From assembly GCF_051903065.1 (NCBI RefSeq), contig NZ_CP178439.1: a DNA stretch of 64,000 nucleotides. One strand, 5' to 3'. The stretch is from Escherichia coli. Lineage in GTDB: Bacteria; Pseudomonadota; Gammaproteobacteria; Enterobacterales; Enterobacteriaceae. A program made the translations under genes and the position numbers. A model generated the notes under the pieces. That model had not been told where the DNA came from and did not search any database. It saw nothing but the letters and a program-made list of their open reading frames with translations. Of this stretch, positions 30,776 to 33,025 are shown piece after piece; position 1 is the first letter of the stretch; each line of letters begins with the position of its first letter.

Positions 30776-31220
30776 CACTGATCCGCATGCCCGTTCCATA
30801 CAGAAGCTGGGCGAACAAACGATGCTCGCCTTCCAGAAAACCGAGGATGCGAACCACTTCATCCGGGGTCAGCACCACCGGCAAGCGCCGCGACGGCCGA
30901 GGTCTTCCGATCTCCTGAAGCCAGGGCAGATCCGTGCACAGCACCTTGCCGTAGAAGAACAGCAAGGCCGCCAATGCCTGACGATGCGTGGAGACCGAAA
31001 CCTTGCGCTCGTTCGCCAGCCAGGACAGAAATGCCTCGACTTCGCTGCTGCCCAAGGTTGCCGGGTGACGCACACCGTGGAAACGGATGAAGGCACGAAC
31101 CCAGTGGACATAAGCCTGTTCGGTTCGTAAACTGTAATGCAAGTAGCGTATGCGCTCACGCAACTGGTCCAGAACCTTGACCGAACGCAGCGGTGGTAAC
31201 GGCGCAGTGGCGGTTTTCAT
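30776..31220 (-). pseudogene. intI1: Class 1 integron integrase intI1, N-terminal 148 codons, truncated by IS26
   Basis: [49 protein letters not shown]... ends at the IS26 boundary. Confidence 0.85.
31105..31133 (+). promoter_or_regulatory. Integron cassette promoter Pc, hybrid type (-35 TGGACA, 17-bp spacer, -10 TAAACT); P2 lacks the GGG insertion
   Basis: Hexamers read at 31105..31110 and 31128..31133 inside intI1. Confidence 0.6.
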
Positions 31221-31366
31221 GGCTTGTTATGACTGTTTTTTTGTACAGTCTATGCCTCGGGCATCCAAGCAGCAAGCGCGTTACGCCGTGGGTCGATGTT
31301 TGATGTTATGGAGCAGCAACGATGTTACGCAGCAGGGCAGTCGCCCTAAAACAAAGTTAACCCAGG

Positions 31367-31849
31367 ATGAGAACCTTGAAAGTATCATTGATGGCTGCGA
31401 AAGCGAAAAACGGCGTGATTGGTTGCGGTCCAGACATACCCTGGTCCGCGAAAGGGGAGCAGCTACTTTTTAAAGCATTGACCTACAATCAGTGGCTTCT
31501 GGTGGGTCGCAAGACGTTTGAATCTATGGGCGCACTCCCCAATAGGAAATACGCGGTCGTTACCCGCTCAGGTTGGACATCAAATGATGACAATGTAGTT
31601 GTATTTCAGTCAATCGAAGAGGCCATGGACAGGCTAGCTGAATTCACCGGTCACGTTATAGTGTCTGGTGGCGGAGAAATTTACCGAGAAACATTACCCA
31701 TGGCCTCTACGCTCCACTTATCGACGATCGACATCGAGCCAGAGGGGGATGTTTTCTTCCCGAGTATTCCAAATACCTTCGAAGTTGTTTTTGAGCAACA
31801 CTTTACTTCAAACATTAACTATTGCTATCAAATTTGGAAAAAGGGTTAA
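31367..31849 (+). CDS. dfrA14: Trimethoprim-resistant dihydrofolate reductase, DfrA14-like cassette
   Basis: 160-aa DHFR beginning 6 nt after an attI1-like GTTAACC junction; DfrA14/DfrA5 family by recall. Confidence 0.75.
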
Positions 31850-31959
31850 CAAAGCTATGCAATCGACGGCAAAAAGCTTCGTTCGCTTCGCGCACTACGC
31901 CTTTTCCGCGATTGATAGCGACGTTATGCAGCCAAATCCCAACAATTAAGGGTCTTAAA

Positions 31960-32412
31960 ATGGTAAAAGATTGGATTCCCATCTCTCATGATAATTACAA
32001 GCAGGTGCAAGGACCGTTCTATCATGGAACCAAAGCCAATTTGGCGATTGGTGACTTGCTAACCACAGGGTTCATCTCTCATTTCGAGGACGGTCGTATT
32101 CTTAAGCACATCTACTTTTCAGCCTTGATGGAGCCAGCAGTTTGGGGAGCTGAACTTGCTATGTCACTGTCTGGCCTCGAGGGTCGCGGCTACATATACA
32201 TAGTTGAGCCAACAGGACCGTTCGAAGACGATCCGAATCTTACGAACAAAAAATTTCCCGGTAATCCAACACAGTCCTATAGAACCTGCGAACCCTTGAG
32301 AATTGTTGGCGTTGTTGAAGACTGGGAGGGGCATCCTGTTGAATTAATAAGGGGAATGTTGGATTCGTTAGAGGACTTAAAGCGCCGTGGTTTACACGTC
32401 ATTGAAGACTAG
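31960..32412 (+). CDS. arr-2: Rifampin ADP-ribosyltransferase Arr-2/Arr-3 family cassette
   Basis: 150-aa protein MVKDWIPISHDNYKQVQGPFYHGTKANLAIGDLL... Confidence 0.75.
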   Translation: MVKDWIPISHDNYKQVQGPFYHGTKANLAIGDLLTTGFISHFEDGRILKHIYFSALMEPAVWGAELAMSLSGLEGRGYIYIVEPTGPFEDDPNLTNKKFPGNPTQSYRTCEPLRIVGVVEDWEGHPVELIRGMLDSLEDLKRRGLHVIED

Positions 32413-32604
32413 TCCTTTGCATAACAAAGCCATCAAACCGGACGCCAGAGATTCCGCGCCTGTTGCGCATGGCTTCGCCATTTTATGCGCAATAGGCGCG
32501 CCACCCTGTCGCCGTTTATGGCGGCGTTGGGCGCACAATAAGGCTCCTCGCAGAGTTGCTTGAAAGTTGTTACGATTCAAATTCAATCATGAGATAGTCA
32601 GCAG

Positions 32605-32669
32605 ATGAGCACTTCCAAGAACGCAGACAAGTAAGCCGCAGCAACCTTCATTTTTCGGTTGTTGCGGCG
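32605..32669 (+). promoter_or_regulatory. cmlA translational-attenuation leader: 9-codon peptide MSTSKNADK plus inverted-repeat hairpin
   Basis: Leader ORF 32605..32634 then GCCGCAGCAACC...GGTTGTTGCGGC hairpin before the cmlA start. Confidence 0.6.
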
Positions 32670-32732
32670 TTCTCATGAATCCTTTTGCTCTACGGGAGCG
32701 CCGCCAAATCCTTTGTTCAAGGAGATGGTTTC

Positions 32733-33025
32733 GTGCGCTCAAAAAACTTTAGTTGGCGGTACTCCCTTGCCGCCACGGTGTTGTTGTTATCACCGTTCGA
32801 TTTATTGGCATCACTCGGCATGGACATGTACTTGCCAGCAGTGCCGTTTATGCCAAACGCGCTTGGTACGACAGCGAGCACAATTCAGCTTACGCTGACA
32901 ACGTACTTGGTCATGATTGGTGCCGGTCAGCTCTTGTTTGGACCGCTATCGGACCGACTGGGGCGCCGCCCCGTTCTACTGGGAGGTGGCCTCGCCTACG
33001 TTGTGGCGTCAATGGGCCTCGCTCT
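32733..33025 (+). pseudogene. cmlA: Chloramphenicol efflux cmlA (cmlA5-like), 5' fragment, truncated by IS26
   Basis: GTG-start N-terminus RSKNFSWRYSLAATVLLLSPFDLLASLGMDMYLPAVPFMP... stops at the IS26 boundary. Confidence 0.8.

Follow-up and report, generated by a model that had tools for sequence, protein, structure and literature searches.

The 2,250-bp segment at positions 30776-33025 of the window, the 64-kb stretch of Escherichia coli DNA that was analyzed, is very probably a decayed class 1 integron that persists as an expression module driven from Pc, is incapable of self-recombination, and is mobile through IS26. Two complete IS26 copies in direct orientation enclose it. Its contents are intI1 codons 1-148 on the minus strand, a Pc promoter of the PcH1 type, attI1, the dfrA14 and arr-2 cassettes in full, and the opening 97 codons of a gene of the cmlA5 type. 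The observation as a whole is real and ordinary, and the structure is already known and already published. The features were as follows.

29956-30775, plus strand: left IS26 (intI1 side), 820 bp, complete by terminal repeats, comparison of copies and translation
30776-31220, minus strand: truncated intI1, start at 31220, codons 1-148 of 337 plus 1 nt
31105-31133, plus strand: Pc, variant PcH1, TGGACA (31105-31110), 17-bp spacer, TAAACT (31128-31133), exact pattern match
31224-31249, plus strand: P2 region in its inactive form, TTGTTA, 14-bp spacer, TACAGT, pattern match
31295-31362, plus strand: attI1, left limit approximate, core GTTAACC at 31356-31362, limits placed from the GTTRRRY consensus
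31357-31923, plus strand: dfrA14 cassette, CDS 31376-31849 with a TTG start, 157 aa, boundary placed from the core-site consensus
~31847-31929, plus strand: dfrA14 attC, ending in core GTTATGC; the dfrA14 cores are imperfect consensus matches
31924-32526, plus strand: arr-2 cassette, CDS 31960-32412, 150 aa
~32418-32532, plus strand: arr-2 attC, ending in core GTTGGGC (32526-32532), inverted repeats found
32527-33025, plus strand: 5' part of a cmlA5-type cassette, with an upstream region carrying its own promoter, a leader ORF and cmlA codons 1-97
32605-32634, plus strand: cmlA attenuation leader ORF, 9 aa by translation, MSTSKNADK
32733-33025, plus strand: cmlA stub, GTG at 32733, 293 nt (97 codons plus 2 nt) before IS26
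33026-33845, plus strand: right IS26 (cmlA side), 820 bp, complete by terminal repeats, with the reference Tnp26 sequence
51225-52439, plus strand: floR, context outside the remnant, FloR model 895.9 bits against a cut-off of 700, positions 1-404 of 404

Terminal repeats and comparison with the parent integron confirmed to the base the initial description of a class 1 integron remnant clipped by IS26 at both ends, with non-IS26 DNA beginning exactly at position 30776 and ending exactly at 33025. On one side, 445 nt of intI1 are left, as expected from the proposed truncation to 148 codons by IS26; on the other, the cut in cmlA, previously placed after "about 98" codons, falls exactly 2 nt beyond codon 97. 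Among the features of a functional class 1 integron, the remnant was found to contain attI1 with a GTTRRRY core, Pc within intI1, and cassettes with attC sites, and to lack a complete 337-aa intI1 and the 3' conserved segment qacEdelta1-sul1. The direct orientation of the two IS26 copies and the prior publication of the structure were not mentioned in the initial annotation.

Alignment with a dfrA14-arr-2-cmlA5 array, which had been proposed as a check, showed all 2,250 bp to be 100% identical, with agreement of the cassette identities. The match was to an intact integron on the Klebsiella pneumoniae IncC plasmid pIncAC2_L111 (NZ_CP030132.1), in which the array intI1-dfrA14-arr-2-cmlA5-blaOXA-10-aadA1-qacEdelta1-sul1-ISCR1 reads straight through both break points. 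Pc (PcH1) and attI1 are common to the two structures, as are the dfrA14 and arr-2 cassettes and the 5' end of that of cmlA5. By contrast, the remnant lacks intI1 codons 149-337, cmlA5 codons 98-419, blaOXA-10, aadA1 and the 3' conserved segment, and IS26 stands on both sides in place of DNA that is present in pIncAC2_L111. Two IS26 events would account for this arrangement, one removing the 3' 56% of intI1 and the other everything from cmlA5 codon 98 onward (blaOXA-10, aadA1, qacEdelta1-sul1).

The same remnant occurs elsewhere. In the Salmonella Goldcoast IncHI2 plasmid pR18.0877_278k (NZ_CP037959.1), both junctions are identical and positions 30415-33807 of the window were matched without a mismatch. 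Of the 60 plasmid records listed, at least 33 carry the 3,890-bp IS26-remnant-IS26 unit as a single stretch (99.9-100% identity), a figure that counts single-piece matches only, the 239 records with at least 80% coverage being inflated by the joining of separate pieces. Uninterrupted copies of the unit were present in Escherichia, Salmonella, Klebsiella, Enterobacter, Leclercia and Shigella. Queries of 80 bp across each IS26 junction (611 and 79 records) were unusable, separate nearby pieces having been joined as one place. In the literature, an IS26-bounded delta-intI1-dfrA14-arr-2-delta-cmlA5 remnant is carried in derived chromosomal resistance regions such as those of Salmonella Kentucky ST198 (PMC10100706), and a class 1 integron with cmlA, arr2 and dfrA14 cassettes has been described where the IncHI2 variable region ends, beside the backbone (PMC9019673). 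Relative to the published IncHI2 unit, the sequence, the IS26 junctions and the backbone position next to umuDC are all the same, and no difference was found within the unit. The surroundings differ: the unit analyzed here lies inside a 27-kb IS26-mediated inversion, and to the right of the second IS26 it is followed by aph(3')-Ia, whereas pR18.0877_278k carries a pRiA4b ORF-3 family gene, a recombinase gene, ISKpn19 and qnrS. The bacteria in which this IncHI2 family circulates come from humans, food animals and fish.

The initial annotation had further proposed that attI1 and a hybrid Pc promoter (TGGACA/TAAACT with a 17-bp spacer) were left intact, and both proposals held. The promoter is exactly PcH1, which is defined as TGGACA/17/TAAACT and encodes IntI1 R32_H39 (Jove et al. 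2010, PMC2791841, Tables 1 and 3); in agreement with this linkage, translation of the stub gave L31, R32, V38 and H39. The element has no TGN extended -10, the -10 hexamer being preceded by TCG, and a promoter scan found it to be the sole plus-strand sigma-70-like site in the segment. With respect to strength, PcH1 is 4.5-fold stronger than PcW, and PcS is 4.5-fold stronger than PcH1 (PMC2791841). An active P2 needs a 17-bp spacer, made by insertion of three G (PMC2791841), and this GGG insertion is absent from the remnant. The attI1 site, in which the crossover G of the GTT core is separated from TT between 31356 and 31357, is 100% identical to attI1 of the intact integron in pIncAC2_L111.

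The cassettes, previously called dfrA14-like and arr-2-like, can be named more sharply as exactly dfrA14 and arr-2. In both pR18.0877_278k and pIncAC2_L111, where the sequence is identical, AMRFinder called dfrA14 at 100%, and the NCBIfam DfrA model was matched over its full length (302.5 bits against a cut-off of 250); an alternative in-frame ATG at 31367 would give a product of 160 aa. The identical sequence carries an Arr-2 annotation (WP_000237816.1) at 100%, again with an AMRFinder identity of 100%, and the NCBIfam ARR model was matched over its full length (223 bits against a cut-off of 130). An attC site is expected to be an imperfect hairpin with RYYYAAC and GTTRRRY cores, and attC-like hairpins follow both genes, exact boundaries being placed from the consensus. 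The bottom strand of the arr-2 attC folded into a hairpin with z = -4.1, and 0 of 200 shuffles folded equally well. The corresponding hairpin of the dfrA14 attC was imperfect (z = -2.4), and the inverted-repeat finder detected no exact 6-bp inverted-repeat seed in this site.

Lying inside the intI1 stub, PcH1 would transcribe dfrA14, the first cassette, giving trimethoprim resistance, and would also transcribe arr-2, the second cassette, giving ADP-ribosylation of rifampicin. From the sequence, we infer that transcription from Pc takes place and that the resistance phenotypes follow. It is improbable that the cassettes are instead a silent relic, carried passively and with dfrA14 and arr-2 adding little or no resistance, as might result from a weak PcH1 or from an effect of the adjacent IS26 on transcription. 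An inactive P2 and a PcH1 that exceeds the weakest common variant only 4.5-fold in strength would fit such a relic, but Pc, attI1 and both open reading frames are 100% identical to those of a complete integron, and the unit has been kept at 99.9-100% identity across dozens of plasmids and six genera. In these plasmids, trimethoprim and rifampicin resistance is also routinely attributed to the unit, and PcH1 is the second commonest Pc variant, present in 28% of integrons, which its describers took to reflect successful selection (PMC2791841). The position of arr-2, second in the array, past an attC hairpin and served by a promoter that is only moderately strong, counts to some extent against a working expression module, which nevertheless remains the preferred reading.

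Near-identical IS26 copies can confuse assembly, and an integron fragment misjoined to IS26 might thus give the appearance of a clipped remnant. The abundance of IS26 in the window and an arrangement of the wider window that no plasmid record matches over 24.5 kb would allow for such an artifact. It is, however, extremely unlikely, since both junctions, together with the left link to the umuDC-side backbone, are found exactly in many independently sequenced complete plasmids, and the remnant junctions appear in the published description as well (PMC10100706). The one link particular to this window is that leading rightward from the IS26 at 33026.

The integrase gene retains the whole of the upstream region containing PintI1 and the LexA box. 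Its reading frame continues for 35 codons into IS26 and stops at 30669, yielding a 183-aa ORF on translation. The integron integrase model was matched at positions 1-148 of 337, with a score of 344 bits that falls below the full-length cut-off of 435, and alignments to the XerC and XerD models covered the N-terminal half only. The stub is 100% identical to the intact intI1 of pIncAC2_L111, which reads on past the break. In tyrosine recombinases, the conserved catalytic residues, including the tyrosine nucleophile, sit in the C-terminal half. Given that the stub lacks this catalytic half, the element is unable to rearrange its own cassettes. The converse possibility, that the shortened integrase is still active and the integron self-sufficient, would draw on the intact N-terminal 148 residues, PintI1 and LexA-box region, and attI1, but has negligible probability with only these model positions left, the XerC and XerD alignments confined to the N-terminal half, and the catalytic residues of the family in the missing one.

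An earlier conclusion that the array is fixed is accordingly sound for the element's own truncated integrase, acting in cis, and overstated beyond that, attI1 and attC being intact and the whole block being mobile through IS26. At attI1 and at both attC sites, the remnant does not differ from a functional integron, and IntI1 expressed from a separate plasmid recombines attI1 and attC sites in standard assays. A co-resident integron could therefore act on the array. No intact intI1 able to act in trans was found in the 64-kb window, and the intI1 of the neighboring aadA22-lnu(F) integron, examined in a related locus (L005), is likewise truncated by IS26. It is conceivable, though very unlikely, that the 183-aa fusion (IntI1 residues 1-148 plus 35 residues encoded across the IS26 end), which retains the N-terminal portion of the recombinase and whose synthesis the preserved intI1 promoter and LexA-box region would allow, occupies attI1 or attC and so damps recombination by integrase supplied in trans; if true, such occupancy would help to explain the invariance of the array across plasmids.

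At the other end of the remnant, the cmlA stub matched the CmlA model at positions 1-97 of 419, with a score of 205.7 bits that is far below the cut-off of 875, and cannot yield a transporter. For cmlA, both the promoter and the 9-aa leader have been described (PMC8876359); this published PcmlA promoter was not flagged by the generic promoter scan of the segment. The stub is identical to cmlA5 of pIncAC2_L111, which reads through the break. The same 293-nt fragment is labeled cmlA6 or cmlA1 by RGI in other records, and hence the stub alone cannot separate the cmlA alleles; the probable assignment to cmlA5 depends on the parent array and not on the stub itself. Calls of cmlA6, cmlA1 or cmlA5 at this locus refer to a 97-codon stub and should not be counted as phenicol resistance. 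The related proposal that chloramphenicol resistance must come from floR was borne out insofar as floR is intact, is the sole intact phenicol gene seen, and is annotated in the identical stretch of a related locus (L003); "must" is too strong for a statement that covers the 64-kb window only.

The flanking IS26 copies were examined for what they imply about mobility. The 64-kb window has 17 occurrences of GGCACTGTTGCAAA, the 14-bp terminal repeat of IS26, compared with 0 expected from shuffles; of IS26 itself, it has eight complete copies and a single partial one. The two that bound the remnant have intact tnp26 ORFs and are not identical. The left copy is a variant in which GG is replaced by AA at IS positions 613-614, resulting in Tnp26 G184N ("IS26-v1"), and scored 278 bits with the IS6-family transposase model (cut-off of 125). 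Given that the flanking copies are complete and directly oriented, the block has the form of an IS26 pseudo-compound transposon. In this respect it resembles those of Harmer, Moran and Hall (2014) and Harmer, Pong and Hall (2020), as cited in PMC8722046, in which a complete direct IS26 pair brackets a resistance segment.

No 8-bp direct repeat was found flanking the IS26-remnant-IS26 block, the left flank being CTTTGCGT and the right flank TTTCACCC; this copy thus bears no footprint of copy-in insertion of the whole block, unlike pseudo-compound transposons that arrive by that route. An 8-bp target duplication around the whole block is expected after copy-in insertion only and not after the targeted conservative route. 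Its absence is consistent with targeted conservative insertion or with later IS26 rearrangement, and proves neither.

The block could leave as a 3,070-bp circle, a translocatable unit consisting of one IS26 and the 2,250 bp, and could re-enter beside another IS26. As with other IS26 translocatable units, the segment plus one IS26 has been reported as a unit of gain and loss: a 3,070-bp block, the size of the remnant (2,250 bp) plus IS26 (820 bp), was gained or lost between related resistance regions (PMC10100706, 2023), an outcome that could equally reflect homologous recombination between IS26 copies. The mechanism of IS26 translocatable units and pseudo-compound transposons is treated in PMC8722046 and the work cited there. 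Movement of this particular copy is something we infer from its structure, and the block most likely moves as an IS26 pseudo-compound transposon or a translocatable unit.

The practical value of these findings is limited to annotation and epidemiology, and they raise no new biological question. The exact junctions serve well as a marker of lineage when the IncHI2 plasmid family is traced in Salmonella, E. coli and Klebsiella, and the remnant places working-looking determinants of trimethoprim (dfrA14) and rifampicin (arr-2) resistance on a block that IS26 can shift between replicons.

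The integron remnant (window positions 30776-33025) is exactly the DNA that separates two complete copies of IS26, which bears out the initial annotation of a class 1 integron piece clipped on both sides. All of the elements named there were found in place, the sole figure that differs being a codon count in cmlA. The features of the remnant, in window coordinates, are as follows.

29956-30775, plus strand: complete IS26 (820 bp), intI1 side
31220 (start), minus strand: truncated intI1, 148 codons and 1 base, then the IS26 end
31105-31133, plus strand: Pc promoter, TGGACA, 17 bp, TAAACT
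31356, plus strand: attI1 core, GTTAACC
31376-31849, plus strand: DfrA reading frame, 157 aa
31960-32412, plus strand: ARR reading frame, 150 aa
32605-32634, plus strand: leader reading frame of 9 codons, MSTSKNADK
32733 (GTG start), plus strand: truncated cmlA, cut by IS26 after 97 codons and 2 nt
33026-33845, plus strand: complete IS26 (820 bp), cmlA side

Many plasmids carry the 2,250-bp remnant at 100% identity. The Klebsiella pneumoniae IncC plasmid pIncAC2_L111 (L002; NZ_CP030132.1) contains it within a complete integron, intI1 (337 aa)-dfrA14-arr-2-cmlA5-blaOXA-10-aadA1-qacEdelta1-sul1-ISCR1, and alignment with this reference dfrA14-arr-2-cmlA5 array gave 100% identity over 2,250 bp. 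L002 is uninterrupted across both points at which the window turns into IS26. Because it reads through these break points, the remnant is a two-sided deletion derivative of an L002-type array. The attI1 site lies within the identical segment and is intact, as had been claimed. The remnant lacks a complete intI1 and the 3' conserved segment and is therefore not a functional class 1 integron.

The cassette identities held on database comparison: AMRFinder reported dfrA14 and arr-2, each at 100%, on identical sequence, and the full-length DfrA and ARR proteins both exceeded the curated NCBIfam cut-offs. After dfrA14 (z = -2.4) and after arr-2 (z = -4.1), the bottom strand folds as an imperfect, attC-like hairpin; the two end in GTTATGC and GTTGGGC, respectively. 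The cmlA cassette is indeed cut by the second IS26, but after 97 codons rather than the “about 98” first proposed. The NCBIfam match of the fragment is N-terminal (positions 1-97 of 419) and below cut-off, and because only 97 of 419 residues are encoded, the stub cannot be a transporter. Its upstream region, which is part of the cassette, is still present, as is the 9-aa attenuation leader reported for cmlA (PMC8876359). Since in other records RGI assigns the identical stub to cmlA6 or cmlA1, the stub alone cannot tell cmlA alleles apart, and its putative assignment to cmlA5 rests on the parent array. The proposal that chloramphenicol resistance must come from floR is reasonable for the window, where that gene is intact (51225-52439; 404 aa; 895.9 bits against a cut-off of 700) and no other intact phenicol gene is present in the annotations of records matching the rest of the window, but is not certain for the whole cell.

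The predicted hybrid promoter is present and is textbook PcH1. Of class 1 integrons, 28% carry this variant, which exceeds PcW in strength 4.5-fold and is in turn exceeded 4.5-fold by PcS (PMC2791841). PcH1 encodes IntI1 R32_H39 (PMC2791841), and the translated intI1 stub has both R32 and H39. The remnant Pc has no TGN extended -10, and the P2 region has the 14-bp spacer of the inactive form; Pc alone should therefore transcribe dfrA14 and then arr-2, as read from these motifs. That the two cassettes are instead carried without expression, as a silent relic, is unlikely given an intact promoter of a common variant and perfect conservation of the sequence across many plasmids.

The same remnant between two IS26 copies, beside umuDC, is present in pR18.0877_278k (L001; NZ_CP037959.1), a Salmonella Goldcoast IncHI2 plasmid; window positions 30415-33807, covering both junctions, match it with 0 mismatches. 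At least 33 of 60 listed records carry the 3,890-bp IS26-remnant-IS26 unit uninterrupted at 99.9-100% identity. These are plasmids of ∼240-300 kb (one of 453 kb) from Escherichia, Salmonella, Klebsiella, Enterobacter, Leclercia, and Shigella, with sources including humans, poultry, cattle, fish, and wastewater. An assembly artefact at the two remnant junctions is excluded, as both recur exactly in independent complete plasmids; the only window-specific part is what follows to the right of the IS26 at 33026. Class 1 integron cassettes cmlA, arr2, and dfrA14 have been described where the IncHI2 variable region ends and adjoins the backbone (PMC9019673), a position that matches L001 and the window. 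Base for base, the remnant is the published IncHI2 delta-intI1-dfrA14-arr-2-delta-cmlA5 unit.

The window contains 17 occurrences of the 14-bp terminal repeat of IS26 (0 expected from shuffles), which mark eight complete copies (820 bp) and one partial copy (301 bp). The partial copy, at 39111-39411, retains the first 301 bp alone and matches the left end exactly. GG>AA at IS positions 613-614, giving Tnp26 G184N (“IS26-v1”), is present in four of the complete copies (18780-19599, 25590-26409, 29956-30775, and 53318-54137); the other four, starting at 849, 33026, 35026, and 46032, have the reference sequence. Raised transposase (cointegration) activity has been reported for G184N (Pong et al., 2019, as cited in PMC9019673). 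Its carriers include the IS26 next to intI1 and the two that flank an inversion.

25590-26417 (including the 8-mer), minus strand: IS26 bounding the inversion, then CTTCATCA
53318-54145 (including the 8-mer), plus strand: IS26 bounding the inversion, then the reverse complement, TGATGAAG

The remnant sits within this 26.9-kb stretch (26410-53317), whose orientation is opposite to that in the ancestral IncHI2 backbone: L001 positions 1-7642 correspond to window 61779-54138 and 7635-15032 to 26410-33807. The shared 8 bp adjoins both bounding copies in inverted orientation. In L001, which is of the ancestral type, the 8-mer lies inside a DsbA-family gene adjoining umuC, the halves of which are ∼27 kb apart in the window. 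Such an arrangement of the shared 8 bp is the signature of IS26 having entered this gene by intramolecular copy-in transposition. No PLSDB plasmid contained the inversion junction as one contiguous piece.

The window contains other modules. A full-length aph(3')-Ia match, above cut-off (34087-34902, minus strand), lies between inversely oriented IS26 copies at 33026 (plus) and 35026 (minus), the module spanning 33026-35845; because the IS26 at 33026 bounds both this module and the remnant, the two form an overlapping IS26 structure. Reading frames of tetR(A) size (21369-22046, minus strand) and tet(A) size (22050-23324, plus strand) lie between the IS26 copies that start at 18780 and 25590, and the record best matching window 1-23296 is annotated with both genes. 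A stretch at ∼39941-40282, mapped from L003 8416-8757 (plasmid pXJW9B277-HI2-N; 100% identical), is annotated there as a RamA-family antibiotic-efflux transcriptional regulator adjoining a glutathione synthase gene and IS4321, and looks like a chromosomal fragment captured by a plasmid. An annotated AAA family ATPase (633 aa; 42539-44440, minus strand), adjoined by a peptidase M14-like gene (44546-45055), may be a defence-type ATPase; its N terminus matches the retron Eco8 effector family weakly (E = 3.4e-07, 29 bits, far below cut-off). The window starts inside an lnu(F) cassette (7-759), followed by IS26 (849-1668), a mef(B) fragment, and sul3 (3689-4480), an order as in sul3-type class 1 integrons.

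The intI1 stub does have 148 codons; its frame runs on for 35 codons inside IS26, and its NCBIfam match is N-terminal (positions 1-148 of 337, below cut-off). This truncation excludes a still-active integron. Missing from the stub is the C-terminal half, the catalytic part of a tyrosine recombinase, and the remnant therefore cannot move its own cassettes. The initial annotation considered the array fixed, which holds only in cis: the remnant retains an undamaged attI1 and two undamaged attC sites, and sites of this kind are recombined in standard assays when a separate plasmid supplies IntI1. No intact intI1 was found within the 64-kb window. The intI1 end of the lnu(F) integron falls outside the window; in the relative NZ_CP039438.1, the neighboring aadA22-lnu(F) integron (L005 2168-3127) has an intI1 likewise cut by IS26, after ∼276 residues, and its promoter-region translations differ from those of the window in a manner that fits a PcW -10 and a P2-activating GGG insertion.

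With two complete, directly oriented IS26 copies, the block has the structure of an IS26 pseudo-compound transposon. Comparison of both flanks revealed no 8-bp duplication around it, as expected for a conservative route or after later rearrangement. According to PMC8722046 and work cited there, such transposons move via a one-IS26 circle, the translocatable unit, which forms by homologous recombination or IS26 action and re-inserts preferentially beside another IS26. The 3,070-bp block gained or lost in Salmonella Kentucky ST198 resistance regions (PMC10100706) equals 2,250 + 820 bp, i.e. the remnant and one IS26, and its gain or loss fits the translocatable-unit route.
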